Of a DNA stretch of 33,108 bases, positions 124 to 32,569 are shown in pieces. The DNA is from a virus (Duplodnaviria; Caudoviricetes). Both the position numbers and the translations under genes were made by a program. The notes below the pieces were generated by a model that did no database searches, was not told where the DNA came from, and saw nothing but the letters and a program-made list of their open reading frames with translations. Every line of letters begins with the position of its first letter. The first letter of the stretch is position 1. The stretch is from positions 1 to 33,108 of the IMG/VR virus record IMGVR_UViG_3300032227_000522. The stretch is one strand, 5' to 3'.

Positions 124-895
124 GGTGTGCGCCTTCCCTGCCATCGGGGTTAGTTGGATCGGGCGAGGGCCGACCGATTATCGCTTCCCAGCGGCGGATT
201 GCTGGTTCATACTTGCCCCAGTCAATTGAGCCTTGCTTAGCGCCGTCCACTTGGTCTTCTAGACGGCCCTTGAGCGCACCGTTGGCACGTTCCTTTGCCG
301 TCGATCCATTTGAACTGCTTGTCCGGGGAGTACCCAGAAGCGTTATTTGCCCACTGCTTAGTACGGCGCGAGCGATTGAGTCGGTTTGTACCACGCCGTC
401 ACGGATCCGTTCCCCAGTTCCGTCCTTGCCGTCCCTAGCTGCTGGGGTAGGCATGAGCGTGAGTTCATTGACAACGGTTTCACGCAGGTTGCGGTAGCCA
501 CCCGGCGATCGCTTCTTCAACTCCGCAATCTGTTCCGGGGTTTTGATTTCGCGGTGTTCCATCGTGTTCGGGGTCGGCAGGTAGGAGGCGCTTACCTCGT
601 CCCACGATTCGAACTCGCGAGGCAAAATACCCTGCGCCAATTCAATCGCCTGTTCTAGTTGAACCCCAGACGGTTTGGTCGGGTGGGTTACGGCCCCACG
701 CGAGTTTCGCTGGCTCGACGCGGTAGTCGGGGTGGGCAGCAGGGAGGTAGCAATGCTCTCGGAGACCGGTAGACCGTTCTCAAAAGCCAGCGTTACCGCT
801 TGGTCGGCAACCTTAAGCATCCGATTGCGTTCCTTCGCTTGCTTCTCGCTAATAGCGCCGCCGGTTGAGTCAGTCACTGCCGGGGTTCGCAACAT
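1..895 (-). CDS. C-terminal half of split C5-cytosine DNA methyltransferase (TRD-like repeats plus motifs IX/X); crosses the circular junction and stops at 32939-32941; ~313 aa
   Basis: Not in the ORF track; translated by hand. GAGGAGGCG-ATG at 895, MLRTPAVTD...LLPTP...YLPTP...LMPTP...LLGTP...RLSSRFTEWMMGLPEGW...LAGNGVVPQQA...NLND*. The stop overlaps the RusA start. Confidence 0.85.
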   Translation of the reverse strand, partial: MLRTPAVTDSTGGAISEKQAKERNRMLKVADQAVTLAFENGLPVSESIATSLLPTPTTASSQRNSRGAVTHPTKPSGVQLEQAIELAQGILPREFESWDEVSASYLPTPNTMEHREIKTPEQIAELKKRSPGGYRNLRETVVNELTLMPTPAARDGKDGTGERIRDGVVQTDSIARAVLSSGQITLLGTPRTSSSNGSTAKERANGALKGRLEDQVDGAKQGSIDWGKYEPAIRRWEAIIGRPSPDPTNPDGREGAHRLSSRFTEWMMGLPEGWITSHGLSRVSELKLAGNGVVPQQA

Positions 896-1463
896 CGCCT
901 CCTCGGGGATAGGCAACAATGAAGACCCTGAAGCGTTGGTGGGGTGCGCCGGCGTCCGAGGCGCGTACACCTTCCCATTTCGCGTCGTACCCGATGTCGG
1001 CCAAGTCCCCGAGAACAGCACCGAGCGCGTTGAGAACAGGTCTGCCTCCTGCTTGCTCCAATATTTCAGGTTCGTATTCCACTCCGCCATCGGCTCGGGC
1101 GGATAGCAATCCTCGCACATTTTCAATTACCACCAATCTTGGTCGGAGTATGTTGATCGCGTGTGCGAACTCCGACCAGAGTCCGCTACGAGTTCCATCT
1201 TTGATTCCAGCGCGTTTCCCAGCAAGCGATAAATCTTGGCAGGGAAAGCCACCAGTAAGAATGTCGACCGGCTCTACTTGCGTCCAGTCCACTTTTGACA
1301 CGTCCCGGTAGTTCGGTACGCCCGGGAAGTTAGCCTCCAGCACCTTCGACGGTGCTTCATCCCATTCGCAATGCCAAACCACCCGGGACGGCAGTACCGA
1401 GGTCAGCGCAAGGTCAAGGCCGCCGTAACCGCTGAAAAGCGACCCGACCTTCAACTCACGCAC
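870..1463 (-). CDS. N-terminal (catalytic) half of split C5-cytosine DNA methyltransferase, motifs I-VIII
   Basis: SLFSGYGG (I), GGFPCQDLS (IV), IENV (VI), HQRFRVFIVA (VIII), then a stop codon. Confidence 0.92.
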   Translation of the reverse strand: MRELKVGSLFSGYGGLDLALTSVLPSRVVWHCEWDEAPSKVLEANFPGVPNYRDVSKVDWTQVEPVDILTGGFPCQDLSLAGKRAGIKDGTRSGLWSEFAHAINILRPRLVVIENVRGLLSARADGGVEYEPEILEQAGGRPVLNALGAVLGDLADIGYDAKWEGVRASDAGAPHQRFRVFIVAYPRGGDVANPGSD

Positions 1464-2100
1464 GATCGAACACCGCGAGAAGTTCTGCTCCGAGTTCGTA
1501 GGGTACGCGAGAACGTTCCCGGGCGTTCTTCAATCCCTGCGTTCCGGTCTTTGATCCGCGTGGGGCCGCCTCGTGGCAATCGCCACCCGGCTTACACATC
1601 GTTCGAGGTTTCCAGCCCGGTACAGAACCCCACAAATCGGTCGGCTTCTGACGTTCGTCCCCATAAGTGCAATAGATGACCGTGCGCCTTTCTAGCCCGA
1701 CCAAAGGTGGAAGTTTGCGAAGCATCCCACGAGGGTTCTCAATCAAGAATCCAAACCGAGGTTCGAGTTCCACCGCGAGCGCCCGGGCGTGGGCTACCAG
1801 CGTCTGATTGAAAACGGCAGCCTCGGTTCGGGCAATTGGGAATTCCCCACCCTGTTTCCAGTGGTGGCTCATTGAGGCAACCGAGAACGCGGTGCAAGGA
1901 GGGGAAGCCCACACGAAGTCGGGCTTGCCATACTTGGCAATCAGCTCGTCCGCGTTTAGTTCCAGTATGTCGACAGTTTCCGTGACCTCGAAGGACGGAT
2001 CCAGTTCGAACGTGATGACGGTGTGTCCGGCATCCTTGAACGCTTGGGTCGACGAACCTGTACCGGCGAAGAAATCGAAGATGAGCAGTTTGTCGGTCAT
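1456..2100 (-). CDS. Second, compact C5-cytosine methyltransferase-like protein
   Basis: FDFFAGTGS, WASPPC, IENPRG, QKPTDLW. ATG at 2100 overlaps the upstream stop (ATGA). Confidence 0.8.
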   Translation of the reverse strand: MTDKLLIFDFFAGTGSSTQAFKDAGHTVITFELDPSFEVTETVDILELNADELIAKYGKPDFVWASPPCTAFSVASMSHHWKQGGEFPIARTEAAVFNQTLVAHARALAVELEPRFGFLIENPRGMLRKLPPLVGLERRTVIYCTYGDERQKPTDLWGSVPGWKPRTMCKPGGDCHEAAPRGSKTGTQGLKNARERSRVPYELGAELLAVFDRA

Positions 2101-2435
2101 GACGAGCCACTCCATTCCATTCGCATAATCGCACCAAGGCTACGGCCCACGTCCAACCGATCGCGTAGAACCCTAAGACCCTCACGCCCAGCGCGTAGCA
2201 CCTGCTCCGCCGTTTCCATAGCTGCGAACTGCTCCTCGGTAGCGATGTCCGCCGTGTACCGTCTTACGTCAACGGATCCGGTAGCGGTCAGGAAGGCTCG
2301 TGCGAAGTCTCGCTTGTAGCGGAGTCGGGCCGCGGTGAACTCGGCGTCCAACCGTTCCACCTCCTCCGACTGCTCTTCGAGCGCCCGGGAGATACGCCCG
2401 AGCGTTTCAATGATTGACGCCGGGGTTAGTTCCAT
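2097..2435 (-). CDS. Hypothetical coiled-coil protein in the recombination module
   Basis: 112-aa ORF translationally coupled on both sides. Confidence 0.7.
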   Translation of the reverse strand: MELTPASIIETLGRISRALEEQSEEVERLDAEFTAARLRYKRDFARAFLTATGSVDVRRYTADIATEEQFAAMETAEQVLRAGREGLRVLRDRLDVGRSLGAIMRMEWSGSS

Positions 2436-3205
2436 CAGTTGCCGTCCTTTAACTCCGACTTACGAGCTGAGAGTGCCTTGCGCTCAACTTCGCTCATAGC
2501 GCGTCGAGCAGTGATGGCGTTGTAGATTTTCATCAAGTGCTCTTCGGTCGGGGCTTTCGCAATCAAGCCCATCACGTCCTCTGTAAGCTCTTCGGGCTTG
2601 TCGGCGCTCGCCGGTGTCACCGTGGTCGCGTCAGGGTCTTCACGGTCAACCTCGTCGTTCCCAAGGGCTACCTGCTGAGGAATGTCCGCCTGAATGTCCT
2701 CGACCGGCTCTGTACCGACCAAAGTGCGAATTACCAGCGCGTCCGTCTGGCCCTTGTTGTAGAGCGACAAACCGAACTGGTCACCCAGCGCAATCGCGGC
2801 GCGTTTGATTGAAAGCGAAATCGCCGACTTGTAAGCGAGGTCGTGAGCGTCCGCCCGGGACGGCTGGTTCTGTGCCGACCCCACGGATCCGTTCTCATAG
2901 TGCGCTACGGTCTGCCCTGCCGAGTTTCGAACTGTCAAACGCACCAGCGCCCGGTACGCCACATCCCATGCCACGTACTCCTTGCCGGCGCGGTTTGTTT
3001 TGACCTCTGAGGTTTCGAAGAGGCAGTCGACGCTAGCCACTTCGATGTCGAAGTTCCCAAACCCGAACATTCGAATTAAGTGGGCTGTTATGTCCTGCTG
3101 GGAAACGTGCGAGTGTCCCTTGCCGTCACGCAGAACGCGTGTCGGTTTGATTGCGTTGAGCAGGTGCTTTACCTGCTCGGTTGTGAATTGTCCACGAATG
3201 TCCAT
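2435..3205 (-). CDS. Rad52/Rad22-family (Sak-like) single-strand annealing protein
   Basis: SHVSQQDITAHLIRMFGFGNFD, YRALVRLTV, HDLAYKSAISLSIKRAAIALGDQFGLSLY; adjacent to an exonuclease. Confidence 0.85.
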   Translation of the reverse strand: MDIRGQFTTEQVKHLLNAIKPTRVLRDGKGHSHVSQQDITAHLIRMFGFGNFDIEVASVDCLFETSEVKTNRAGKEYVAWDVAYRALVRLTVRNSAGQTVAHYENGSVGSAQNQPSRADAHDLAYKSAISLSIKRAAIALGDQFGLSLYNKGQTDALVIRTLVGTEPVEDIQADIPQQVALGNDEVDREDPDATTVTPASADKPEELTEDVMGLIAKAPTEEHLMKIYNAITARRAMSEVERKALSARKSELKDGN

Positions 3206-3206
3206 T

Positions 3207-3818
3207 TCAGATGCCTTCCTTGTCTGTTTGTGAATAGAACACTAGCTCCTGCTGAAGGCGCTCTGCGACCTCAACAAGTTCAGCGATCATCTTTTCATCT
3301 CGTTCGAAGATGACCGTCTTCGGTTCGAACCATGCCGGGACGAATTGCCCATTCTGCTCGACCCGAAGAATCCATGCGAATACGCACCGCGAAGCGCCGG
3401 TGACATACAACTGCCACTGGACTTGGCGGCGGTAGTGAATGGGGATGGACTTCTCAGTACCCCAATCCTTGCCTGTGGTTTTGACCTCGGCGATTGTGTC
3501 GTGGTCAAGCGACAAACCGTCCGGCGTTGCGAATTGCCAGCGGTTTGCCAAACCGTCAGCAGCTATAAGCCAGTCGTTGGGAAAGATACCCCACTGGTCT
3601 TTGAGCGAAGCGACAATCCATGCTTCGTTGTCGCGCCCGAACGCCATGTATGCGTTGTCCTCGAAAGGGGTCGGGTTATTGCGCTCGTTGATGATTTCTG
3701 CGTAGCCGGACGGCGTTGCGGCCTTTGCCACGGTGGTTGCGGAAACCCCGGTGTCGCGGATCCGCTTCCATTCCTCCATGTCCGTCGATCGGACGAGGAA
3801 TCGGGGATGTTCAATCAT
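3207..3818 (-). CDS. YqaJ-like (lambda-exo family) viral recombinase exonuclease
   Basis: EEWKRIRDTGVSAT, MAFGRDNE, ATPDGL, AEVKTT, QVQWQLYV. Start moved to ATG 3818 (RBS GAGAAGGC) because 3830-3912 looks like promoter plus structured RNA. Confidence 0.88.
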   Translation of the reverse strand: MIEHPRFLVRSTDMEEWKRIRDTGVSATTVAKAATPSGYAEIINERNNPTPFEDNAYMAFGRDNEAWIVASLKDQWGIFPNDWLIAADGLANRWQFATPDGLSLDHDTIAEVKTTGKDWGTEKSIPIHYRRQVQWQLYVTGASRCVFAWILRVEQNGQFVPAWFEPKTVIFERDEKMIAELVEVAERLQQELVFYSQTDKEGI

Positions 3819-3838
3819 GCCTTCTCTTTTCATTAGGT

Positions 3839-3912
3839 GGGGCAGGTCGGTAGGACTGACCAACCTGCCCCGGGCGGTCGGGAAGGCGTCGACCGCACTC
3901 CCCAGAGTATCA
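3839..3912 (-). promoter_or_regulatory. Extended -10 promoter (TGaTACTCT, 3904-3912) followed by two tandem RNA hairpins (3874-3896, 3839-3871)
   Basis: A 7-bp perfect stem with loop ACGCCUUCC, and a 13-bp stem whose single irregular pair is G-U only on the minus strand. Confidence 0.6.
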
Positions 3913-3946
3913 CGGTACTCGATACCGCCGACATCAAATAAGCGTG

Positions 3947-4075
3947 TCAAAGGAACACCACCAAGGCGATGACCAAGACCACAAAGTTGACGGCAGCTAG
4001 TAGGACGTTCGCTCGGGCCAGAAACTGTTGTCGCTTCCGGTTGCGAACACGATCGCGGATGGGGCTACTGGTCAC
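3947..4075 (-). CDS. Small membrane protein (42 aa)
   Basis: GTG start; basic N-terminus and hydrophobic C-terminus VLLAAVNFVVLVIALVVFL. Confidence 0.55.
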   Translation of the reverse strand: MTSSPIRDRVRNRKRQQFLARANVLLAAVNFVVLVIALVVFL

Positions 4076-4235
4076 GGTTCTCACGCTCCGCCCGGTAGAT
4101 GCGACCATACTCAACGAGCATCCGCCAGTAGCAGAGCGCGGTGAAGATGTAGAAGCCGTCACCGATGTCGAAAGTATCCTTGATGCCGATGAAGAGCGTC
4201 CCAGCGAGCGCGTAGGCGATGAATCTAATCTCCAT
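4065..4235 (-). CDS. Small membrane protein (56 aa)
   Basis: MEIRFIAYALAGTLF...; RBS GGAGGAGAAAG before ATG 4235. Confidence 0.6.
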   Translation of the reverse strand: MEIRFIAYALAGTLFIGIKDTFDIGDGFYIFTALCYWRMLVEYGRIYRAERENRDQ

Positions 4236-4557
4236 CTTTCTCCTCCCACTTCTTCTTAAGCGCCGCGAAGGTCGACATTGAGTCCCGGGAGAGTAGGCCA
4301 ACCTCCACCATCGCTACCACGTCCATGATGTTGCCACCGTGGGTTACGAGCGCGAAAAGGAACGAGGACTCGCGTATCGCCACATCGGGCGGTACAGGAG
4401 TGCCGTTGATTGCGGTGATGATTGCTTCGCTGATGAATGCCGACTTGCGGTACTCAACGAGTGCGTTCACGATCGCGTCCGAGATTGATTGCGGTGGCAT
4501 GACCTCCTTGAAACGGTCAGTCCATTGCTCGGGAGTTTCGACTGGTTCGAGGTTCAC
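4225..4557 (-). CDS. Hypothetical protein
   Basis: GTG start overlaps the upstream TGA; MNLEPVETPEQW... Confidence 0.65.
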   Translation of the reverse strand: MNLEPVETPEQWTDRFKEVMPPQSISDAIVNALVEYRKSAFISEAIITAINGTPVPPDVAIRESSFLFALVTHGGNIMDVVAMVEVGLLSRDSMSTFAALKKKWEEKDGD

Positions 4558-4919
4558 TTTGCCACCTTGATTCCGGCGGTCGCGAAAATGGTCTCGGGCT
4601 TGAAGCCGTCGACGACCTTCCAGACTCGGCACTTACGACCGAACCGGGTCAAGCCGTATTCGCCCGACCACTCGATGACCCCAGCGTCAGCAAGTTCTGC
4701 TCGACGCGATCGCACCGATTGCGGTGAAGCGAAGGGGTGCAGTTCCTCGTGGGCGTGGCCCTCGAACTTGTGAAACAGTTGCTCATCGGTCAGTTGCTCA
4801 CCGTAGAGCGCGAAGAAGACCGCAATAGCAGTCTGGGATGGGCGGTAGACCGAGTCGGCCGCCTCGTGCGATGTTTCCGGATCCGTCTTACGAGCGCCCG
4901 GGATAAATGAGAACTTCAT
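4554..4919 (-). CDS. Winged-helix-like DNA-binding protein (ARxTDPxTSHxAA family)
   Basis: ARKTDPETSHEAA, LTDEQL, SVRSRRAELADAGVI, GRKCRVW; RBS GGAGG. Confidence 0.75.
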   Translation of the reverse strand: MKFSFIPGARKTDPETSHEAADSVYRPSQTAIAVFFALYGEQLTDEQLFHKFEGHAHEELHPFASPQSVRSRRAELADAGVIEWSGEYGLTRFGRKCRVWKVVDGFKPETIFATAGIKVAK

Positions 4920-5068
4920 TTGATGCCTCCTGTCCAAATGCCCTGCTTGATGTTTTCAGCGTGTTCAACTCCACACGCCCAGATGAGATAAGCGTCGGCT
5001 ACCTGCCACCGACCGGTGGGTGTCATCCCACACTCAGCGCAGGTCGCGCCGTCCCCTAGTACCTTCAT
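4916..5068 (-). CDS. Small putative Zn-binding protein (50 aa)
   Basis: Hand-translated MKVLGDGATCAECGM...WACGVEHAENIKQGIWTGGIK*. RBS GGAAGG; the stop overlaps the next ATG. Confidence 0.65.
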   Translation of the reverse strand: MKVLGDGATCAECGMTPTGRWQVADAYLIWACGVEHAENIKQGIWTGGIK

Positions 5069-5171
5069 GGTTTGCCTTCCTATGAACCGCCTCTATGCGG
5101 TGAGCCTAGGTTAGCATCCGATTTCCCCGGATTGGACACATTTGCGAATTTTGATTTCTGGATCCGTAATA

Positions 5172-5272
5172 GTGAAAACGTTAGTTTTCACGGTCGGGTC
5201 GGGTCGGGTCGGGTCGGGGTCAACGAACCTCGCCCGATGTTCGCCCGAACGCCGTCCGAACTTCTTACGAAC
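5172..5272. other. Putative replication origin: inverted repeat GTGAAAAC-N4-GTTTTCAC (5172-5191), (GGGTC)n tract (5192-5221), 11-bp-phased CGAAC iterons (5224-5272)
   Basis: CGAAC at 5224, 5246, 5257 and 5268, and CGATG at 5235. The block is non-coding, lies between divergent genes and has AT-rich flanks. Confidence 0.6.
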
Positions 5273-5288
5273 TAATAGTTGTATGGAG

Positions 5289-5330
5289 TTGATGTATCTA
5301 TAAATAGATGCTAGACTCATCACGTAAGGC
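5289..5330 (+). promoter_or_regulatory. Sigma-70/SigA-type promoter TTGATG-17-TAGACT with GTAAGGC leader
   Basis: -35 at 5289-5294, extended -10 TGc-TAGACT at 5312-5317; inverted repeat ATCTAT-AA-ATAGAT in the spacer. Confidence 0.7.
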
Positions 5331-5353
5331 AAACCGGACAGAAAGGCAACAAA

Positions 5354-5626
5354 ATGGAAAGCAACAAACTCCGCACCGAGAACGTCTCGGGACTCTCGAT
5401 TGGCTATTACGCGACCGAGATAATCGACATCTACATGACGCCATCCTTCGACCCCAAGAACTATGTGGGACGCAAGGCACTCTTCGAGACCTTCGAAGGA
5501 CGCATCCTTGAGGGAACGCTCGAACTCAAGTCCGCTCGAGTTCACGCCATGATGGTCATCCGCTTCGAAGACGGAATGTGGGCAAACATCGGCTCGTGCC
5601 TGTACCTCGCAGACTGGGCTAACTAG
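5354..5626 (+). CDS. Hypothetical protein (90 aa), the only plus-strand gene; self-contained cassette
   Basis: Has its own promoter, RBS GAAAGGCAACAAAATG and terminator; C/G-ending codon bias. Confidence 0.8.
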   Translation: MESNKLRTENVSGLSIGYYATEIIDIYMTPSFDPKNYVGRKALFETFEGRILEGTLELKSARVHAMMVIRFEDGMWANIGSCLYLADWAN

Positions 5627-5633
5627 CCCTACC

Positions 5634-5671
5634 CGAGAAGAGCCTCAGCCAGAAGGCTGGGGTTCTTCTCG
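5634..5671 (+). terminator. Hairpin terminator, possibly bidirectional, between convergent units
   Basis: 17-bp stem CGAGAAGAGCCTCAGCC / GGCTGGGGTTCTTCTCG with two G-U pairs; AGAA loop. Confidence 0.75.
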
Positions 5672-5680
5672 TTCGCTGGT

Positions 5681-5707
5681 GCGCCAGTCGCGCCAGTCGC
5701 GCCATTC
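5681..5707. repeat. Three tandem copies of GCGCCA(G/T)TC
   Basis: gcgccagtc gcgccagtc gcgccattc. Confidence 0.8.
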
Positions 5708-5721
5708 ACACAAAGCTGGCG

Positions 5722-5811
5722 CTACTGGCAGGAATCGCACTGCAGGAAGTCCATGGGGTCGACCGGTACGGCGTACCCACCAACTCGCTCGGCTAATTCC
5801 TCACCATTCAC
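5722..5811 (-). CDS. 29-aa micropeptide MNGEELAERVGGYAVPVDPMDFLQCDSCQ
   Basis: Hand-translated. GTG start overlaps the holin stop (GTGA); terminal CxxC. Confidence 0.65.
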   Translation of the reverse strand: MNGEELAERVGGYAVPVDPMDFLQCDSCQ

Positions 5812-6008
5812 TTCGTCAGACCGAAGGCAGGGTCGTTCGGGTTGAGCCAACGGATCGCGACCGGGATAACCGCAATCCAGACGGCGTTTGCCACCGCGTA
5901 CCAGTCCGCCGTAGTGAACTCAACGGGCAACTTGCCGATTGCGAAAACCGCACCGAGGGCCGTGGCGAGAAGGCTACGACCGTAACTTGCCAGAATGGCT
6001 GTGTTCAT
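5808..6008 (-). CDS. Holin-like membrane protein
   Basis: Two hydrophobic segments, RWLNPNDPAFG C-terminus, position in the lysis cassette, RBS AAGGAG. Confidence 0.8.
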   Translation of the reverse strand: MNTAILASYGRSLLATALGAVFAIGKLPVEFTTADWYAVANAVWIAVIPVAIRWLNPNDPAFGLTK

Positions 6009-6069
6009 TGTTTCTCCTTGTTTGGGGTCAACTATCTAGGGTGACCGTCCCGGGCGCTTGCGGCGCGTT

Positions 6070-6342
6070 TTACAAACCGAGCAGTTTCGACACAATCGGT
6101 GCAAGCACCGCCAGCAGACCAAAGCCACCAACGGCCTGCCAAATCCTCGACTCGACGGCACGGATCCGCTCCTCGTGGTCGGCGATTTGCTTCTCTGTTG
6201 TGTCCTCAAACTTGCTCATGCGGTCTTCTGTAGCCGGCATCGAAAGCGACAGCCCCATCAGGATTTGTTTCATCTCCTGCAAGTCCCGATGCACGTCTTT
6301 CAGCGTGACCCGGATACCGCCGTCGTTGTCCTCCGTTACCAT
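6070..6342 (-). CDS. Lysis-cassette membrane protein (coiled coil plus C-terminal TM)
   Basis: DHEERIRAVESRIWQAVGGFGLLAVLAPIV. Confidence 0.75.
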   Translation of the reverse strand: MVTEDNDGGIRVTLKDVHRDLQEMKQILMGLSLSMPATEDRMSKFEDTTEKQIADHEERIRAVESRIWQAVGGFGLLAVLAPIVSKLLGL

Positions 6343-6686
6343 TCCGTCGACTCCACTAGAAACTTCTGAAGCGCACGAACCGATCGCGTGTCAAAGGTCG
6401 GCGAGGCAGGAACGCCAAGGAACAACTGGAACGCCAACCGTAGGTCGCGGCCCCACTCGCCGGTTTGCTGCAAGCCCAGTTTCTTCTGGAGCGCCTTGAC
6501 CGTCTTGGGGTCGAGTTCCCGGGTCTGCTTTACGCCAAGGAGGAATTGTAGTGCGCCAATTGTGTCTGCGTCGAGAACCCCGGTCGGCTTGAAAATGGGT
6601 CGGCTAACCGTTACTGGTTCAGCAATCGGCTCGGACGAATCCGTCACGACTTCTTCGACGGCTTCCACCGGTTCTAATTCGCTCAT
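6336..6686 (-). CDS. Stand-alone peptidoglycan-binding-repeat protein
   Basis: Four imperfect TG.(L/W)D..T..ALQ..LG repeats; ATG 6686 overlaps the endolysin stop. Confidence 0.7.
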   Translation of the reverse strand: MSELEPVEAVEEVVTDSSEPIAEPVTVSRPIFKPTGVLDADTIGALQFLLGVKQTRELDPKTVKALQKKLGLQQTGEWGRDLRLAFQLFLGVPASPTFDTRSVRALQKFLVESTEW

Positions 6687-7270: not shown

Positions 7271-7277
7271 GGTTCTC

Positions 7278-8207: not shown

Positions 8208-8217
8208 CAGTCACCGC

Positions 8218-24204: not shown

Positions 24205-24236
24205 TCCGTGCGGATGATTTGTACCACCGTGCGGTG
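24205..24236 (-). promoter_or_regulatory. Two CC-GCAC-GG mini-hairpins in the terS leader
   Basis: CACCGCACGGTG (24225-24236) and TCCGCACGGA (24205-24214, overlapping the GGAGG RBS). Confidence 0.55.
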
Positions 24237-24269
24237 ATACTCGATGCTAACACCCTTCGAACATAAATG

Positions 24270-24410: not shown

Positions 24411-24411
24411 T

Positions 24412-24938: not shown

Positions 24939-24962
24939 GGTCTTAGTGTATCGGCGCAGAGG

Positions 24963-24998
24963 GAAACCCCACCCAGCGTGTCGGCTAGGTGGGGCTTC
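24963..24998 (-). terminator. Intrinsic-type terminator after the 25008-25523 gene
   Basis: GAAGCCCCACCTAGC-N6-GCTGGGTGGGGTTTC; G-U pairs favour the minus strand. Confidence 0.75.
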
Positions 24999-25007
24999 GG
25001 GTTGGGG

Positions 25008-25523: not shown

Positions 25524-25555
25524 GGTGTTGCCTTCCTTTGGGTTGTTGCCTTGCG

Positions 25556-25597
25556 GCCTTACCTCTAAACGATACCGTTTATCTGGCAACAGTGCAA
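25556..25597 (-). promoter_or_regulatory. SigA-type promoter TTGCAC-17-TATCGT with GTAAGGC leader
   Basis: -35 at 25592-25597, -10 at 25569-25574, GTAAGGC at 25556-25562. Confidence 0.7.
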
Positions 25598-25642
25598 CTA
25601 CGGCGTGGCAATAGATACACGCCAAATCTCGGCACGGATCCG

Positions 25643-26788
25643 TTAGCCCATCAGTTCCCGGGGTGTTTCCCAAGGCGCGTGGTGACGGCCCATATGACCG
25701 TAAGCCGCCAGCGATTGGTAGCCGTGGAAGGTACGAAGCCCGAGGTCACGGATAATCCCTTCCGGGGTTAGGTCGAACGCCAGCGAAATGGCGTCGGCGA
25801 TAAGTTCATCGTCCCCAGTGCCAAAGGAGTCCACGTAGACCGCCACAGGCTTTGCCACACCGATCGCGTAGGCAATCTGCACCTCGCACCGGTTAGCCAT
25901 TCCAGCAGCTACGACCGTCTTCGCAATCCACCGCGCCGCGTAAGCGCCAGAACGGTCGACCTTCGACGGATCTTTCCCCGAGAACGCTCCACCGCCGTGT
26001 CGGGCCATGCCGCCATAGGTGTCGACAATAATCTTTCGCCCGGTAAGCCCGGCATCGCCTTGTGGGCCGCCAATCACAAAGCGCCCGGTCGGGTTGATGA
26101 GAACTTTCACGTTCGTCCAGTCGAGTTCGTAGGCATCCCCGAATTCCTCGAGAATAGGCTCGATGACGAATTCGCGCACATCGCCGCGGACGGTTTCGAT
26201 GTCTACATCGGCACGGTGCTGGGTTGATACCACCACGGTATCAATCGTGACCGGTAGGGATTCGAGATAGCCGACGGTGACCTGCGTTTTGCCGTCCGGG
26301 AGCAAGTAATCAAGGTTTCCCTCTTTGCGTTCGTGGGTAAGGCGCTGGGCGAGGCTGTGCGCGATCGTTATTGGCATCGGCATAAGCTCTTCGGTTTCAT
26401 CGGTGGCGTACCCGAACATCATGCCTTGGTCGCCGGCCCCAATTGTTGATGGGTCGTCTGAGGCGTTGTCTACCCCTAGCGCGATGTCGGCGGACTGCTT
26501 TCCAATAGCCACGTTGATGCCGCAGGTTTCTGCGTCGAAACCGTACTCCGATGAGGTGTAGCCGATTCTGGCGATTGTTTTGCGGACGATTGCTGGCACG
26601 TCAATGACGGCGCTGGTTCGAAGTTCCCCGAAGACGTGGACTTGCCCGGTAGTGAGCGAGGTTTCGACGGCTACTCGGGAGTTCGGATCCTGTTCAAGTA
26701 CCGCGTCCAGAATGGCGTCGCTGATTTGATCAGCCATCTTGTCCGGGTGGCCCTCGGTGACCGATTCGGATGTGAATAAGCGAATCAT
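25643..26788 (-). CDS. metK: S-adenosylmethionine synthetase
   Basis: [57 protein letters not shown]; full length at 381 aa. Confidence 0.97.
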
Positions 26789-26799
26789 GGTGTTCCTTC

Positions 26800-28014
26800 C
26801 TACGATTCAGCGAGGATGAAGTTTGTGTCCTCGCCGGTTGATTCGAGTTTAGGCGTAATGCCTGTTAGTTGCTGGTATCGCCGACAAATGACGTCAACGT
26901 ACTTTGGGTCGACCTCGATAGTACGGCAGGAGCGACCTAGGGTTTCGCAAGCGATGAGGGTAGACCCCGAACCGCCAAAGCCGTCAAATACGATGTCGTT
27001 CTGGTTGCTTGAATTCAGGATTGAGCGCTGCAATAGGTCGATGGGCTTCATGGTCGGGTGGTCTGTGCTTTTCGAAGGTCGATCGTATTCGAAAATCGTG
27101 TCTTGCTTGCGGTCGGGTACGGCTTGGTGCGCGGCCCCGGGAGACCAACCGTAGAAGATTGCCTCGTGCCGGTAGTGGTAGTCCGATCGACCCATCACCA
27201 GCGAGTTCTTGACCCAGATAAGGGTTTGTCGCCAAATGCCCAGTTCTGTAAGTGGGATGCAGAAGGCTTGGAAGGCAGGGCCAGACGGTGCGTAAACGTA
27301 CCAGCAACCGCCCGGGCGCGTGTAAGAGTTGGTCAGCGAGAAAGCGTCTCGTAGGAAGCCCTCGAGCATTGCGGTGTCCAAGTCATCGTTTTCGATTGTC
27401 AGCGCGTCTTTGGTCTTGCCCACGTAAGCGACTCCGTAAGGCGGATCCGTTAGGACTAGGTCAATGCGTTCTTCCCCGAGCAGTTTCTCGTAAGCGCCGT
27501 CCTCTGTGGAACTACCGCAGAAGACCTTGTGACGGCCCAGAATCCAAACATCGCCGGGCTTGCTGATTGGGTCTTTAGGTGGCGGAGGTACATCGTCCAC
27601 TTCGTCCCCGGTAGCCGTTTCTAAATCGGTACTGCTGTAATCTTCCCCGAATTCGAGAATGTCGACATCGAAGTCGTGAAGGCGTAGTTCTTCGAGTTGC
27701 CGGTTTAGTACGTCTTCGTCCCACTCGGCGAGTTCAGCGGTGCGGTTGTCGGCGAGGGCGTAAGCCTTCAGCATCGTCTCGTCCCATTCCGCTGGGGCTA
27801 CGACCGCGTCGACCGTCTTCCAGCCGAGTTGAGTAGCAGCTAGAATCGTGCCGTTCCCAGCGAGTACCGTACCGTCCGCCGCTATCACAATCGGTTTACG
27901 TTGCCCGAACTTGTCGAGGCTGGCCGTAATTGCTTTCAGGTTTCGCTCGGAGTGCTTCCGGGCGTTGTTCGGATCCAGAATCAGCGAGCTGATTTCTTTG
28001 TTTTCAATATCCAT
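26800..28014 (-). CDS. ParB-like N-terminal domain fused to N6-adenine/N4-cytosine DNA methyltransferase (beta class)
   Basis: DPNNARKH...FGQRKPIV...ALADNR (ParB/Srx fold); [26 protein letters not shown]. Confidence 0.92.
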
Positions 28015-28015
28015 T

Positions 28016-28138
28016 TCAGCCTTCCATGTGGCATTCGCACCTGCAAATGTCCACGCTTGTGGTTTCTATCTTTGACCGGTACTCCCCGGGGCAATCGGTG
28101 CAGTGTCGCTTACCGAGACACCAGCCAAGTACCTGCAT
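28016..28138 (-). CDS. Small Cys/His-rich protein (40 aa)
   Basis: MQVLGWCLGKRHCTDCP...CRCECH; begins just after the tmRNA-like RNA. Confidence 0.55.
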   Translation of the reverse strand: MQVLGWCLGKRHCTDCPGEYRSKIETTSVDICRCECHMEG

Positions 28139-28145
28139 GAAGTCG

Positions 28146-28225
28146 TGGACGTGTGGGGAGTCGAACCCCAGTCCGATCGTCGTTCCCTCTCGGGTCTTAC
28201 GCCGTCGAGTAACCGTTACACGCCC
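28146..28225 (-). ncRNA. Miniature tmRNA-like RNA (tRNA-like domain only, Ala identity, no tag reading frame)
   Basis: GGGCGTG-TAACGGTTACTCGA-CGGCGT-AAGA-CCC-GAGA-GGG-AACG-ACGATCG-GAC-TGGGG-TTCGACT-CCCCA-CACGTCC-A: 7-bp acceptor stem with G3:U70 and A73, stemless D-loop ending TCGA, GAC linker, canonical T arm. Confidence 0.85.
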
Positions 28226-28232
28226 GTCCACT

Positions 28233-28418
28233 TCAGTCTACAGACCGCAGGTGACGCGCTGGGTGATCCGTTTGCGCCTTTTCAGTTTGCGTTTTGCGGT
28301 TCGCAATTGCTAAACCGCTCCCGACTACCGCCAGCGTGACAATAAAGAAGATGGCGAGCAGTATGACCAGCGTCACAAGGACACCAGCCATAACGCTCGC
28401 CAATTCCCAAATCCACAT
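28233..28418 (-). CDS. Small membrane protein (61 aa)
   Basis: Long hydrophobic N-terminus; TAATG overlap with the SSB stop. Confidence 0.65.
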   Translation of the reverse strand: MWIWELASVMAGVLVTLVILLAIFFIVTLAVVGSGLAIANRKTQTEKAQTDHPARHLRSVD

Positions 28419-28804
28419 TAGAACGGCGCTTCGACCGATGCCGGTGCAGGGCTGGCCTGTGCGGTTGCTTGCCAATCCGAGCCTTTAGCCATTCCCGGCT
28501 CGAGCGCGACACTAGCTGCGTTGACGGTCAGATTGTAATACTTCTTTCCGTTGGACTCCGAGGCGAGGGTGACTTCCGTTCCGGTAATCACAACGCGATC
28601 GCCTTTCTTAAACTGCGTGAAGTCGACCTCTGTGCCGTAGGCGGCCCGAACGGTACGCCACGTGCGACCGACCGTTTCCCATTCGTTGGTGGCTTCGTTC
28701 TTCTTGCTGTGCAACTCAACGACCTTCATGCCCCACTTGGGGTGCTGGTCTTCCGTAGCCGACCATGGATCGACGAATCCGGTGAACTCAATCTTTGCCA
28801 TCAT
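28418..28804 (-). CDS. ssb: Single-stranded DNA-binding protein (OB fold)
   Basis: IEFTGFV, WETVGRTWRTV, KKGDRVVITG, C-terminal EAPF. Confidence 0.75.
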   Translation of the reverse strand: MMAKIEFTGFVDPWSATEDQHPKWGMKVVELHSKKNEATNEWETVGRTWRTVRAAYGTEVDFTQFKKGDRVVITGTEVTLASESNGKKYYNLTVNAASVALEPGMAKGSDWQATAQASPAPASVEAPF

Positions 28805-29249
28805 ATTCCTTCCCCAGCAATATCTTCATCGCCAGTTCTTCTTGGCGCTTTGTCATCAGCGCCACTTCCATTGCCCGGGTCATCACGATTGGTGTCCCTT
28901 CGTCCCCTGCCTTGTCGACAGGAACTTTATCAATTTTATCCTCGACCACCGACATGATTGTCAATGTTTCACGTGAAACATTACGGCGAGGTTTTCGAGG
29001 TTTCCGGGGTTTCCGGATGGTGTTCTTAACAGCCGGGTCTTTCCAGACATAGCGCGGCGGAGACGGCGGTGATTCGGGACGGTCAAGTATCTCGTCCCAG
29101 CGTAGGAGAGTAAAAGACCAGCCCGGCGTAGGACGCGATTCCGATAATGCCTCTTTAGATATCCTCTTAACCACGTCAGCATAATTCTCGCCTTCCTTTC
29201 CCAGCAACTCGACGGTCGCCCATTGGTGAAATATCTTGTCCATGTCCAT
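28788..29249 (-). CDS. Hypothetical protein with an RKP repeat; contains the parS site
   Basis: 153-aa ORF that fills the gap between its neighbours. Confidence 0.6.
   Translation of the reverse strand: MDMDKIFHQWATVELLGKEGENYADVVKRISKEALSESRPTPGWSFTLLRWDEILDRPESPPSPPRYVWKDPAVKNTIRKPRKPRKPRRNVSRETLTIMSVVEDKIDKVPVDKAGDEGTPIVMTRAMEVALMTKRQEELAMKILLGKEYDGKD
28965..28980. promoter_or_regulatory. Perfect chromosomal-type parS site TGTTTCACGTGAAACA
   Basis: Exact match to the canonical bacterial parS; the palindrome extends to 20 bp (28963-28982). Confidence 0.85.
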
Positions 29250-29258
29250 GTTGTTATC

Positions 29259-30446
29259 CTAGACCACACGTAAATCCGTGAAGGCATCTCCGTCGGTAAT
29301 AAGTGTCAGCCCACCGCGCACACCAAGGTCACCGGTCTTGTGACGCCACCACGTCGATTCCGATTCAAACGTAGGAACGCAGATGACCGTGCGCCCACGC
29401 TTCGTCTGGATCGAGAACTCATGCTCGTGACCGTGGAATAGGAAGGAAGCGGCCCCAGCGGATTGGAAGTTAAAGGTTTGCCCTTTCCACCACTCCATCG
29501 ACTTGCCACGCGACCACTGGTGACCGTGGGCCAACGTCATAACCGTCGATCCACATTCCCGGGTCATAAAGGACTCGTCGTTTTGCGGTACGAACACCGA
29601 GACGTGCGAATAGGTGTCAGGATTCATCTGGAAAGCGTCCGCAAGCGAAACCGCCGACTCGGTCGCGTGACCGTCATCGGCGCGTGTGGCTTGGAAGCGT
29701 TGGGTTTCATCGTGGTTACCGTTCACCACGGAAAGTTCGACCCCGGGAGCATCTAGGAAGCCGTCGACGGCGTACTTCATCATTCGTCTGAAGAGCCGGT
29801 ACTGCTCCGTGACGGTCAGGGTAGTGCGCCACATATTGCGTCCGTTTTGCGATACGTTTCCCTCGCAGGAATCGCCGCCAAAGTAGATGTGAACCTTGTC
29901 GATTGACCGGGTACGGCGAAGACGGCGGTACTCCGCTACGGCACGATCAACGGACTCAACGAATGCCTTGACCGTTCCCTCGGCCCCATCCCCGTCCATC
30001 TTCCCTAGCTGCAGGTCGCCAACTAGTAGTTGGAAAGTTCCTGTGCCGGTTGATTCGACTCGCTTTACCGGTCGCCGCTTCTCCACCGAGGCAATAATCT
30101 CGTCCAACTTGAAAGTGGCTGTGATCGGCTCAACGATGAACTTGTAATACCAGACTGGCTTTGTGGTAGCGTACTTCTGGTCGGGCCGATCGCGTGTCCA
30201 GCCAGCCGTATTGTGCCGAGATTCCACTAAGCGCACCCGGTAGCCCTTCGGAACTACGCCGCCGTTCGCCCTGACGAAGTTAGCCATGTCATCTTCGGTT
30301 TCTAGCTGCTGATCGGTTGTGGCGGTGATGGTTGCCGTTTTAGGATCGTGCGGTGCATACTCCGCCGTGAAATTGAACTGGCGAGGGTCTATCTTCCCCG
30401 AAGGCTCGTTTACCGCTGGCGTTGATAACGCGTCCCGGATATTCAT
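29259..30446 (-). CDS. Metallophosphoesterase (calcineurin-like) domain protein
   Basis: GDLQLGK, GGDSCEG, VNGNHDE, AHGH, GHEH. Confidence 0.85.
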   Translation of the reverse strand: MNIRDALSTPAVNEPSGKIDPRQFNFTAEYAPHDPKTATITATTDQQLETEDDMANFVRANGGVVPKGYRVRLVESRHNTAGWTRDRPDQKYATTKPVWYYKFIVEPITATFKLDEIIASVEKRRPVKRVESTGTGTFQLLVGDLQLGKMDGDGAEGTVKAFVESVDRAVAEYRRLRRTRSIDKVHIYFGGDSCEGNVSQNGRNMWRTTLTVTEQYRLFRRMMKYAVDGFLDAPGVELSVVNGNHDETQRFQATRADDGHATESAVSLADAFQMNPDTYSHVSVFVPQNDESFMTRECGSTVMTLAHGHQWSRGKSMEWWKGQTFNFQSAGAASFLFHGHEHEFSIQTKRGRTVICVPTFESESTWWRHKTGDLGVRGGLTLITDGDAFTDLRVV

Positions 30447-30673
30447 AGCCAGTCCTTGTGGCGGCCTTTGCGGTGCTGGGTGAATGGGTGGTGGCTGACC
30501 GGCATTCCAAAAGGCTGAAGCCGGCGGATGATTTCTGTAGTTGTCAGCGTGGATCCGTAAAACTCAATCACGGCGGCGCGGTCTTCAGCGTCGAGCGCAA
30601 ATAGCCACTCGCAATAAGCGCATTTACGATCGGATTCGATTGGTGCGTTAAGTGCGTCCCTTATTTTGCTCAC
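30443..30673 (-). CDS. Small putative DNA/Zn-binding protein, probably leaderless
   Basis: CAYC...QHRKGRH; TAGGAT sits 6 nt before the GTG. Confidence 0.7.
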   Translation of the reverse strand: MSKIRDALNAPIESDRKCAYCEWLFALDAEDRAAVIEFYGSTLTTTEIIRRLQPFGMPVSHHPFTQHRKGRHKDWL

Positions 30674-30711
30674 GTTTCAATCCTAACTTGAAGGTTAATG
30701 ATTCCCCGAAT

Positions 30712-31104
30712 TTACGATTCGAGCGCGGTATCTATCCGCCACTCTTCTTTCCACTCGCCACGGCCTAAAGCGTCCATCTTTGACGGATCTGTTTCTTCCC
30801 CAGAGAAGAAGCGCTTTGTTTCGATTTCAAGAACCCGATCGCGCATGTCGCTGAACGCTTGGTATTCAACCTGCCGGGCTTCTGCCCTTCGCTTCCGGTT
30901 TAGTTCATCGACCCCGATAATGATTTGTCGAGGAGTGAGGTACTCGGTGCTGTTCCTGAAGTGCTGGAACATTACGGTCGTGGCATCTTCGAAATCTAGT
31001 TCTCCGATAACCATGAACCATGCCTCGACGGTTTCTGTGCCGACCGTCCGGTTGTCGATTGCGGAGGCCATGGTCAGCAGCTTCGCGACTTCGGTTTTAT
31101 TCAT
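30712..31104 (-). CDS. Replicative helicase loader/inhibitor-like protein (G39P-like N-terminus)
   Basis: MNKTEVAKLLTMASAIDNR...EAW...LDFEDA...HFRNSTEYLTP; downstream of the initiator. Confidence 0.7.
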   Translation of the reverse strand: MNKTEVAKLLTMASAIDNRTVGTETVEAWFMVIGELDFEDATTVMFQHFRNSTEYLTPRQIIIGVDELNRKRRAEARQVEYQAFSDMRDRVLEIETKRFFSGEETDPSKMDALGRGEWKEEWRIDTALES

Positions 31105-31249
31105 CAAGGTTGTTCCTTCCAATTTCGCTGGCTACCCACGACTTGAATAGCGCGTCGATCCTTTGCTCCCGGGTCGCTGGGTGGGATTCTTGGCATACAC
31201 CGTCCTCGCGTAGCCCACCGCAAATCGGGCAGTTAGTCAGTTCGCTCAT
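31097..31249 (-). CDS. Small Zn-finger-like protein (50 aa)
   Basis: Hand-translated MSELTNCPICGGLREDGVCQESH...; RBS GAAGGAG. Confidence 0.6.
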   Translation of the reverse strand: MSELTNCPICGGLREDGVCQESHPATREQRIDALFKSWVASEIGRNNLDE

Positions 31250-31397
31250 CGGATTCTCCTTCCATCATCTTCCGCAACGCTTCGTCCATTCCATTCGTGA
31301 ATTCGTCAATCAGCGCTTGCCTTTCAGCTTCGCTCTTTCTCTTCTCAATGAACTTCCACTTTCGCTGTTCAGGCGTTAACCAGAATTCGTAAACCAT
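31233..31397 (-). CDS. Small hypothetical protein (54 aa)
   Basis: Hand-translated MVYEFWLTPEQRKWKF...; TGATG overlap with the rep stop. Confidence 0.6.
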   Translation of the reverse strand: MVYEFWLTPEQRKWKFIEKRKSEAERQALIDEFTNGMDEALRKMMEGESDERTD

Positions 31398-32023
31398 CAA
31401 GCCAGTTCCTTCCTGTCCGTAGCCTCCGCGTTTGCGAAGACCTGCACTACCGAGAGGTTCTGGGCCGCCTTAGTTGTAGCCGGCGCACGAACACCCCTCG
31501 ACCTTGAATCGCTGAATACGCGGCGCATCCAGTTCTTCCAAGTCCTATCCCAATCCAACTTTGTGGCCCCAGCCCCAGCCTTCGAGACCCAGTAGTCGAC
31601 GAAGTGATCCGTGTGGGCTATTACATCCAAGCCCGGGAATTCTGTCTTAGCCCAGCGCACCAGTTCGTCGTTGGGTTTCCACTCCGCTGCGAGGCGCGTA
31701 GCCCGAGGAGACGAACCCGATCGGCGTTCCCTAGCTGCTTCACGCTCCGCCAGCACCTTCTCTTTGACCGGCTGGTACTCGTGCCAATCCTTGAATTGGT
31801 AGCCGTCCTCTTCCCGATACCACAAACCGACCGTTACAAGCTTGTCGGCGAGCGCCATTCCATCCCCGGTAAGCACCTCGATGATCGGATCCGGGACGAA
31901 GCCGTCCGTTAGTTGTTGCCCCGACCATGAACCGGCGCGTACCCACAGCCCCATGGCGGAGTTACCAGCCATGATGACCTTCGGGTTGAGCGCAAGGTTA
32001 TCGTCCACTTTGAACCACGTCAC
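31397..32023 (-). CDS. RepA-like replication initiator
   Basis: WFKVDD...GLWVRAGSW...LTDGFVP...GLW...YQFKDWHEYQP; C-terminal FVDYW...KLDWDRTWKNW; GTG start at 32023. Confidence 0.8.
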   Translation of the reverse strand: MTWFKVDDNLALNPKVIMAGNSAMGLWVRAGSWSGQQLTDGFVPDPIIEVLTGDGMALADKLVTVGLWYREEDGYQFKDWHEYQPVKEKVLAEREAARERRSGSSPRATRLAAEWKPNDELVRWAKTEFPGLDVIAHTDHFVDYWVSKAGAGATKLDWDRTWKNWMRRVFSDSRSRGVRAPATTKAAQNLSVVQVFANAEATDRKELA

Positions 32024-32042
32024 TTTGCCTTCACTTGCCTTT

Positions 32043-32369
32043 CTAGTTTTCGACGGCACGAATGCCACCGTCAGTTGTCAAATACACGAGTCCATGTACG
32101 GAGTGCATTATTGGCGTCTCCGCCGGATTGGCGTACTTGCTGATTTTCACGCCTCGGGCCAGCGCTTCCGTTTGTAGATCGTGTTCGACTCTACCGTTGA
32201 GAATAGAGTCTAGCCAGACGAGGTTTGCGATTTCGTGCTTGCCACCGCCCATGCCACGGTTTGCCCGGTGGTGCGGTACTAGCGTGTCCGATTCAAGTCC
32301 CGAGTAGGCGCAGACGTGACCGTCCCGACGGTCGAGCGCAGCTAGTAGCGCCTTCGGAACGGAACTCAT
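32043..32369 (-). CDS. HNH-like protein
   Basis: RRDGHVCAY...PHHRANRGMGG...NLVWL...NGRVE. Confidence 0.7.
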   Translation of the reverse strand: MSSVPKALLAALDRRDGHVCAYSGLESDTLVPHHRANRGMGGGKHEIANLVWLDSILNGRVEHDLQTEALARGVKISKYANPAETPIMHSVHGLVYLTTDGGIRAVEN

Positions 32370-32569
32370 AGGAAGTCCGCCTTGATTTCCCGGGCGAGCG
32401 CTTGAGCGTCCTGTTCCGATACGCCGTAGGCAAGGATCCGTTGCTCGAGTCGTTTTACCTTTGCCGATTGCTCTTGGCGTTGGCGGCCCTGCCGGTACTT
32501 CAACTGCGTCTCGCGGTGCTTCTCCCGGCACTGCTCGCACCGACATCCGCGTCCATAACCGTGCGCCAT
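32366..32569 (-). CDS. Small Zn-binding protein (HG..GCRC..C family)
   Basis: HGYGRGCRCEQCRE. Confidence 0.7.
   Translation of the reverse strand: MAHGYGRGCRCEQCREKHRETQLKYRQGRQRQEQSAKVKRLEQRILAYGVSEQDAQALAREIKADFL

Follow-up and report, generated by a model that had tools for sequence, protein, structure and literature searches.

The subject of this work is an array of GGATCC words, with the 10-bp palindrome ACGGATCCGT as its fullest form, in the genome of a virus of the Caudoviricetes (Duplodnaviria; IMG/VR virus record IMGVR_UViG_3300032227_000522, positions 1 to 33,108). The whole stretch of 33,108 nucleotides, referred to below as the window, represents a siphophage assembled to completion as a circle of 32,985 bp, which is closed by a terminal repeat of 123 bp. 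We suggest that ACGGATCCGT may be the preferred version of methyltransferase-type sites that form an array with regular spacing, kept while most other restriction words were purged, and that such regularly spaced methylation marks may have been selected against a "missing-self" host defence. Each of these two propositions, drawn from sequence comparisons, appears to us plausible and somewhat short of probable. What we observe is an excess of sites with the best flanks, the filling of gaps, conservation, replacement of lost sites nearby, overlap with purged words, and convergence.

The counts of the original prediction, made from the letters of the window, were reproduced: the eight perfect copies of the 10-mer all lie where it had placed them, there are 40 GGATCC hexamers, and in 32 of these ACGGATCC is present on one strand or both (17 + 23 = 40 strand-hits). 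Its density of one copy per kb holds for GGATCC and the 8-mer, but the 10-mer occurs only once per ~4 kb. In 200 codon-preserving shuffles, the 10-mer reached a mean of 0.16 copies (maximum 2) against the eight observed, GGATCC a mean of 9.1 (maximum 20) against 40, and ACGGATCC a mean of 2.1 strand-hits (maximum 7) against 40. A stricter null, combining the codon shuffle with a penalty on 96 avoided words (nine sampled states, intergenic copies fixed), gave 2–3, 11–24 and 8–15, respectively. As this null raises the expected counts, some of the excess can be put down to escape from forbidden words, with the 8-mer still standing about four-fold above expectation. Both nulls bear out the claim that amino-acid or codon demand is an insufficient cause; together with the conservation and the near-absence from candidate hosts described below, they also uphold the view of a selected array. 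As for the reading contexts that had been listed, R-I-R at 401 and N-G-S-V at 2883 are seen in the translations, but the copy at 9207 sits in an open reading frame (ORF) of 68 codons that is not counted as a gene. Overall, 36 of the 40 hexamers are in coding sequence, 19 being read as G-S, 5 as R-I-R and 12 as x-D-P, while 4 fall outside the gene set used.

The idea that the 10-mer is the unit of the array had to be given up, since its AC and GT flanks vary separately and other methylation-type words behave alike. AC/GT is found on both sides of 8 GGATCC copies, on one side of 24 and on neither side of 8, so that ACGGATCCGT is the doubly optimal case. Both flanking bases are specific to GATC: G follows 72 of 103 GATCC vs 55 of 169 other ATCC, and T follows 51 of 72 GATCCG vs 9 of 55 other ATCCG. 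Moreover, GGATCC has company in its excess over codon shuffles, namely CCCGGG (45 vs 9.5) and GCAGCTA (20 vs 2.7).

Among 133 four-base words of the window, GATC is the most evenly spaced (coefficient of variation of the gaps, CV, 0.67; z -3.6), followed by GGCC, CGCG and CCGG. Even spacing was also found for GGATCC (CV 0.68, p 0.005), CCCGGG (0.70, p 0.007) and GCAGCTA (0.55, p 0.003). Counts alone would mislead here: with 119 copies vs ~150 at neutrality (0.79; 21% rarer), GATC seems mildly avoided while its spacing is strongly selected. Its short and long gaps are both depleted (13 short gaps vs 25.8). Test words and control words could not be told apart by a simple sign test on the longest gap, and therefore we used a long-gap test instead, in which the excess beyond three neutral gaps is compared with that at neutral density (shuffles). 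By our reasoning this test discriminates because the removal of sites cannot shorten gaps below neutral. For GATC in the window the excess was 269 bp vs a mean of 1687 bp, and none of 100 shuffles was as low. Across 30 whole records (a set omitting the near-duplicates G022, G025 and G397 and the outgroups G408 and G016 of high guanine–cytosine content, GC), 18 of 101 pairs for six test words fell below the 5% level, vs 3 of 234 pairs for sixteen control words.

At the same time, the window has lost many potential restriction words. CCWGG and GGWCC are absent (~71 and ~74 expected), CCCGC occurs once vs 83, CCCGT nine times vs 85 and AGATC four times vs 59, and 23 of the 64 six-base palindromes have zero copies. 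GGNNCC is found 58 times vs 153 expected, with eight of its ten variants purged (4 copies together vs ~131); the only survivors are GGATCC (40 vs 10.0) and GGCCCC/GGGGCC (14 vs 12.2). The same pattern was seen in G001, a close relative with a large terminase (TerL) 93% identical to that of the window. The surviving forms overlap GATC or GGCC, sharing the same cytosine, and we read them as probably shielded by overlapping cytosine methylation; shorter or degenerate avoided words (GGWCC, GRGCYC) also remove several of the eight lost variants. A tendency of CCWGG and CCSGG to exclude each other was noticed in the window, G001, G403, L196, L200 and L205: CCSGG is often at 1.6–2.8 times expectation where CCWGG is zero, and near zero where CCWGG is evenly spaced.

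Restriction avoidance alone might account for part of this picture: two-site enzymes would purge close pairs, forbidden words would escape into GGATCC and CCCGGG, and methylated overlaps would be tolerated. The depletion of short GATC gaps, the doubling of GGATCC and CCCGGG under the forbidden-word null and the abundance of CCSGG where CCWGG is zero agree with such a scenario, and many type II enzymes need two sites (PMC4081073; here and below, statements from the literature refer to excerpts of the papers cited). Enzymes of the Sau3AI/MutH, HpaII, MvaI/BcnI, LlaMI and BpuJI families are indeed encoded in 20 methyltransferase neighbourhoods of candidate hosts. However, avoidance cannot bring long gaps below neutral; it covers the loss of short gaps and a part of the excess, but not the filling of long gaps. 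Site density exceeds the hard-core bound in 27 of 27 even GATC and 18 of 18 even CCWGG cases, the bound being our own one-dimensional model and the cases being chosen by CV. Avoidance also leaves ACGGATCC at the level of the stricter null, cannot yield the 16 GGATCC copies of an unrelated phage described below, and has a simpler outcome in sister phages, which just delete every GATC. Overall, we find it improbable that avoidance is the whole cause.

Even spacing recurs in the relatives of the window phage. Among the cases with mean gaps of 250–1100 bp in 78 non-redundant phage sequences, those with CV<0.7 (the even state) number 25 of 42 for GATC, 13 of 33 for AGCT, 20 of 46 for CCWGG, 13 of 37 for GGCC, 11 of 31 for CCGG and 4 of 40 for TCGA, vs 0–6 of 24–70 for 21 control words. 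Examples are G017, with 32 AGCT at gaps of 521–1999 bp (CV 0.32), G005, with 41 GGCC (CV 0.42) and neither GATC nor AGCT, and G390, where all six words are evenly spaced, each separately. Phages ~70% identical occupy three GATC states: zero, even and dense. The dense state, with GATC at 1.6–2.1 times neutral, was seen in G002, G010, G012 and G019, kin of zero-GATC phages; in G002 it comes with a GATCC(G) flank bias and rare GGATCC. In G005, purines make up 95% of the 82 strand-wise 3' flanks of GGCC (YGGCCR context), and this phage encodes a PAPS-reductase-domain protein adjoining ParB-domain and acetyltransferase genes. Among cultured phages, phiC31, Philonius and Hum25 have GATC CVs of 1.03, 0.96 and 0.92, no word of Arian is spaced with p below 0.02, and phiPsal1 has a CV of 0.64, yet failed the long-gap test.

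Comparison of related genomes shows that sites with the best flanks are maintained: such GATC were conserved in 23 of 35 aligned cases, in three overlapping comparisons, vs 9.6 expected from codon-level divergence. Where a GATC was lost, the nearest gain lay 168 bp away vs 274 expected (window/G001) and 352 bp vs 807 expected (G396/G397), figures to which no p-values are attached. A further point in favour of selected spacing comes from G017, where CCAGG is absent from the coding strand and CCTGG reaches 74 copies vs 35–37 (CV 0.57). One-strand-only words of this phage (L111, L112) include GCCC (2 vs 89), CCAGG (0 vs 19.5) and GCTAC (0 vs 41). The bias resembles orientation-based evasion of type III-like enzymes and is weaker in G002, G004, G014 and G019.

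The same word was reached by an unrelated lineage. When viral contigs were scanned for the motif pair, L098 was the one locus among 18 that joined the motif with GATC avoidance. This phage (L098/G037; 35% GC) belongs to a different lineage, and all ten of its GATC are GGATCC. A protein query yielded six relatives of it; G415 and G412 share its state, while the other four hold 0–2 GGATCC. In G415 (36% GC, 98% complete, with integrase genes), 16 of 17 GATC are GGATCC (0.79 expected) and there are 14 ACGGATCC vs 0.11 expected, at a mean gap of ~1.7 kb (CV 0.31); outside GATC, ATCC is found three times vs 85–89 expected. All seven GATC of G412 are GGATCC (CV 0.15). No ORF of G415 matched the methyltransferases or the S-adenosylmethionine (SAM) synthetase MetK of the window. 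Because its nearest cultured TerL (45%) comes from a Butyrivibrio phage, the host of G415 is likely a member of the Bacillota. Its sibling G413 follows the same logic with other words: each of its 14 CATG is written as CATGATC (2.8 expected in the overlap, and 0 outside it vs 45), and all 18 TCWGA overlap GATC. These overlapping CATG and TCWGA are about five- to seven-fold over chance and spaced 1.6–2.1 kb apart (CV 0.42 and 0.45). ATCC and CAGA, too, survive in G413 (L561, L562) almost only where they overlap GATC, and a homologue (42%) of the window gene at 1456–2115 is a candidate GATC methyltransferase there. A metagenome scan covering 15 of 64 parts added 120 loci; in the 46 loci that are 5 kb or longer, 47 extra 8-mers were counted vs 22.5, and the top loci were GATC-rich without even GATC spacing. 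A state unlike that of the window was also seen in L594, L640, L619 and G408, which are GATC-rich, with GGATCC at 3–12 times expectation and random spacing.

The original prediction had proposed a self-mark or modification role for the motif and had named, as one example, targets of a fusion of ParB and an N6/N4 methyltransferase supplied by MetK. We retain the self-mark or modification role as the best reading, but not this enzyme as its source. In G001 both genes are missing from the syntenic position, but the motif is still there (18 ACGGATCC vs 1.1 expected), so MetK is not required. Nineteen loci with relatives of the window ParB-methyltransferase contain 28 GGATCC vs 70.8 expected and 5 ACGGATCC vs 8.3, and 79 loci with relatives of a second ParB-methyltransferase gene contain 8 GGATCC vs 111.7. 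Thus, the expected co-variation of motif and cassette was found neither in G001 and G415 nor in the relatives' loci, and on the strength of G001, these 98 GGATCC-avoiding loci and G415 we reject this pair of genes as the cause of the motif. A broader version, in which the sites are targets of the MetK-fed enzyme or bind a phage packaging or organising protein, could draw on the presence of a ParB-methyltransferase (34% identical) in the unrelated, motif-bearing G037 and on a motif density in the window about twice that of the cassette-less G001. Besides the missing co-variation, the separate spacing of several words and the flipping of states among phages 70% identical count against it, and we hold it to be highly improbable. 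The metK and ParB-methyltransferase genes form a 2.4-kb stretch swapped for ~0.5 kb in G001, and metK has no homologue in the other clustered phage records.

As regards the host, the best cellular match to the window TerL is a prophage in a Cryobacterium genome (59% identity), and the capsid matches are almost all actinophages; from these we infer a Microbacteriaceae host. A check of the host genome for the motif had been proposed; no host-wide signature was found in the candidate hosts, with one ACGGATCC in 400 kb (10 genomes, sampled as 20 chromosome stretches of 20 kb each). Among 201 Nanopelagicaceae genomes, many of them incomplete and taken as plausible hosts only, 37 encode a C5 methyltransferase. 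The 20 methyltransferase neighbourhoods mentioned above also contain DrmA-DrmB, MORC+Z1, DruE-like and DndH-like genes, with DrmA/DrmB beside a C5 methyltransferase in one of the 20 (L386); islands with MORC+Z1 are L376, L381 and L385, and those with DndH-like genes are L382 and L388. A search for the host methyltransferase by name returned generic names only. A variable defence hotspot (L370-L387) was noticed at ~390–510 kb of several complete Nanopelagicaceae chromosomes, where C5 methyltransferases adjoin DISARM, MORC+Z1, DruE-like, DndH-like, type III and IIG genes.

The strongest rival of the missing-self reading is a methyl-directed repair ratchet of the type proposed by Elhai for the highly iterated palindrome HIP1, which would make and protect sites up to about one per kb and leave the array as a by-product of repair or a mild gain in fidelity. 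In this model the sites should level off at about one per 1000 nt, and additional flanking bases should become fixed (PMC4390886). GATC gap caps, which cluster at 0.75–1.1 kb, fit it; the conservation and local replacement that it predicts were both seen, and the host islands encode MutH-domain Sau3AI-like and MutL-like MORC genes. Yet MutS_I was found in none of five candidate host genomes (MutL and MutH were not searched genome-wide), and the four small candidate hosts G173, G179, G191 and G274 matched neither MutS_I nor NucS_C, which leaves them with no known mismatch-repair route found. The candidate host chromosomes lack the pattern, no phage gene is common to all evenly spaced phages, and the fixed flanks in G413 and the window form exactly those words that are purged elsewhere. 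Furthermore, up to six words are spaced separately in G390, and pooling three words of the window makes the spacing less even (CV 0.89). Taking both sides into account, we consider the ratchet unlikely to be the cause.

A phosphorothioate mark could act in a comparable manner if a fraction of sites were modified and the best-flanked ones were kept at a spacing tolerated by DndFGH or SspE. GATC, GGCC and CCGG are known phosphorothioate motifs with ~10–15% of sites modified (PMC11931770), a spacing rule for DndFGH/SspE has been proposed as speculation (PMC8053081), and DndFGH, once bound to marked DNA, reportedly leaves sites in the vicinity alone (PMC10853773). Against this, AGCT, CCWGG, TCGA and CATG are not among the motifs given in the literature excerpts, and DndC was detected in none of the 201 Nanopelagicaceae genomes and in 3 of 151 from Microbacteriaceae relatives, each of the three being large (Ssp and BREX type 4 were outside this search). 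We regard this version as very unlikely.

We return to the missing-self reading, according to which a host effector would attack DNA that lacks a methylated site for more than ~1–2 kb. Every site would be costly in hosts with an ordinary restriction enzyme, so that redundant sites would be lost, while a site in a long gap would pay where a scanning, methylation-repressed effector is present. Candidate effectors would be DISARM-like, MORC+Z1-like or DndH-like systems paired with a C5 methyltransferase, and the marks might be 5-methylcytosine acquired from the previous host or from the phage two-chain methyltransferase. GGATCC would escape the GGNNCC purge by being shielded through methyl groups on the GATC that it overlaps, the AC/GT flanks would suit the writer or the reader, and the phage would converge on a minimal covering set of sites in protected, well-methylated contexts. 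DISARM offers a partial precedent, since its DrmAB is described as repressed by methylation (PMC9142583), and the known motifs of its C5 methyltransferase DrmMII are CCWGG and MTCGAK (bioRxiv 2021.12.28.474362). The speculative spacing rule for DndFGH/SspE mentioned above (PMC8053081) is a further partial precedent.

Several observations weigh against this reading. Neither GGCC nor AGCT of the window passes the long-gap test, the choice of the six test words was made midway and on overlapping data, and the related phages are not independent. GATC conservation is no higher where a loss opens a larger gap (0.48 vs 0.50, 63 sites), and flank quality shows no tie to isolation (rho 0.08). The zero count of GGGCCC is also explained by GRGCYC avoidance and so does not fix the position of the protecting methyl group. 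In 91 tests the recognition modules of the two-chain methyltransferase, bar one, do not map onto spaced words. On the host side, reader candidates are rare in the 201 Nanopelagicaceae genomes (Z1 in 5, DrmB-type domain in 3, DndH-like in 2), spacing of words comparable to that of the phage was not seen in the 400 kb of candidate host chromosomes, and the Microbacteriaceae assignment goes back to one prophage TerL. C5 methyltransferases have ~100-fold flank preferences (PMC11879396), but those measured for M.HaeIII and M.AluI differ from the phage flanks, and the favourite GGCC flank of G005 is the one disfavoured by M.HaeIII (same source). Finally, DISARM defence is reported to be stronger with more unmethylated motifs and not to scale with phage site number (bioRxiv 2021.12.28.474362); this preprint conflicts with the methylation-repression account of PMC9142583, by which it is cited.

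Three methyltransferase genes were found in the window, one of them in two chains (Table 1), and the two-chain C5 enzyme is a plausible writer of the marks. Its overlapping two-frame gene with tandem recognition modules is presumably akin to M.EcoHK31I and to the multispecific methyltransferases of Bacillus phages; its module content does not predict the spaced words. The LxTP modules of the second chain fall into ~13 recurring classes, shuffled among 80 homologues, and module 5 was associated with AGCT (8 of 10 vs 5 of 38, p 1.2e-4 among the 91 tests). Even CCWGG was found only in carriers of the two-chain enzyme (11 of 18 vs 0 of 14 in 32 records, a comparison confounded by sampling). Beyond this, a gene-content association in the same 32 records gave nothing, and even spacing occurs without the two-chain enzyme in G396, G397, G014 and G005.

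Table 1. Features of the window discussed in the text (positions in the 33,108-nucleotide stretch).
Position	Strand	Feature	Remarks
1..1126	-	Overlapping second methyltransferase chain, 391 aa	Crosses the circle join to 32939; carries LxTP modules, five in tandem, that are likely to serve target recognition
1..32985		Companion arrays on the circle	93 GGCC (CV 0.67), 44 CCCGGG (CV 0.70), 14 GGCCCC/GGGGCC
157..32720		Array of 119 GATC	CV 0.67; longest gap 844 bp
401..32441		Array of 40 GGATCC, 32 with ACGGATCC	Otherwise purged GGNNCC word over GATC, AC/GT flanks; CV 0.68, p 0.005
401..410		ACGGATCCGT, R-I-R in second methyltransferase chain	Position check, translation
436..32344		20 GCAGCTA/TAGCTGC (AGCT over GCWGC, often CTAG)	CV 0.55
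870..1463	-	First chain, catalytic, of the C5 cytosine methyltransferase; some of the marks may be written by it	PF00145, E 1.5e-38
1456..2115	-	Second C5-methyltransferase-like gene (phrog_757)	Also in G001, G388; G413 at 42% identity
2883..2892		ACGGATCCGT, N-G-S-V within the Rad52/22-like gene	Identical in G001
9207..9216		ACGGATCCGT between tail genes	Its GATC borders the longest GATC gap (9210-10054, 844 bp)
13555..13564		ACGGATCCGT in distal tail (Dit-like) gene	
17359..17368		ACGGATCCGT in head-closure gene	Identical in G001
22262..22271		ACGGATCCGT in large terminase gene	Identical in L001, L002
24424..24433		ACGGATCCGT in HNH gene	Identical in L002
25634..25643		ACGGATCCGT directly downstream of metK	
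25643..26788	-	MetK (SAM synthetase)	Absent from motif-bearing G001
26800..28014	-	ParB-N6/N4 methyltransferase	Does not travel with the motif
32986..33108		Terminal repeat of bases 1-123	123 bp

Nearly all window genes are on the minus strand. They include terminases, portal, capsid and tail genes, an M23 endolysin for lysis, Rad52/22 and YqaJ for recombination, RusA, and the modification genes of Table 1 (MetK, the ParB-N6/N4 methyltransferase, the two-chain C5 enzyme and the second C5-like gene). Two neighbouring genes at 23274-24198 (-) match the small-terminase families phrog_4102 and phrog_83.

It is worth placing the array among the dispersed words known so far. Phages such as T7 show restriction-site avoidance and orientation bias; the absence of CCWGG and GGWCC in the window, the one-strand words of G017 and the survival of sites overlapping a methylated word resemble this, but here sites are positively kept and long gaps filled. 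Chi, DNA uptake sequences and the stoperators of mycobacteriophages are also short, dispersed, over-represented words within genes. They are non-palindromic and polar, intergenic, or host-chromosomal, and Chi is a self signal that stops a translocating nuclease, a role that the array would resemble. Stoperators are asymmetric, run in the direction of transcription, lie mostly between genes and have a cognate repressor. In contrast, the window word is palindromic, non-polar, mostly coding and confined to the phage, without enrichment in the candidate hosts; its orientations were counted as 21 vs 30, and no match to integrase or repressor families was found among the 52 window ORFs.

The HIPs of cyanobacteria, both HIP1 (GCGATCGC) and alternate forms, for example GGGATCCC (PMC4390886, PMC5861425), are close in appearance, being GATC-centred palindromes with fixed flanks read in all frames, conserved beyond codon constraint at about one per kb, non-randomly spaced and linked to methyltransferase sites. 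The at least 15-fold palindrome excess expected of a HIP is exceeded by the 10-mer and the 8-mer against codon shuffles (~4-fold under the forbidden-word null), and conservation beyond codons was found, albeit in overlapping comparisons. However, the array is phage-specific, the candidate hosts carry no chromosome signature at 1–2 per kb, and the core word is rarer than neutral. The array also works on a scale of 0.3–2 kb, unlike the 10–90 kb given for HIP1, with several words at once and in a restriction-purged genome. DISARM (DrmAB with DrmMII) and DndFGH/SspE (PMC9142583, PMC8053081, PMC10853773) share with the proposed effector that no cognate cut site is needed and that a self mark damps the attack. 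The two DrmMII motifs match two words spaced in relatives, while the window itself has no CCWGG; the excerpts of these papers describe neither a distance rule for DISARM nor an adaptation of spacing on the phage side. Overall, the array falls outside the HIP1, Chi, stoperator and uptake-sequence classes, and we file it under restriction-driven genome shaping. In the open-access full-text literature, we found no account of phages whose restriction sites are spaced regularly.

Loss of restriction sites is what one would expect of a phage, but here a minimal regular set is kept, and two unrelated lineages have reached ACGGATCC(GT). Such evidence leads us to propose, as a possibility that we hold a little more loosely than the reading of the window itself, that a "password lattice" spans the genomes of phages from two or more bacterial phyla. 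This lattice would consist of as few methylation sites as suffice to leave no gap above ~1–2 kb, placed in overlaps that shield them from ordinary restriction enzymes. It would be the footprint of widespread, uncharacterised, distance-measuring missing-self defences, whose specificities and range could be read from phage genomes. If repair turns out to be the cause, the arrays would provide a natural test of Elhai's one-site-per-kb HIP1 model in hosts apparently without MutS. If defence is the cause, they would open a sequence-only route to methylation-sensing systems, their motifs and their reach, and the question of how DISARM-, Mza- and Dnd-type systems tell self from non-self would become testable with spacing constructs.

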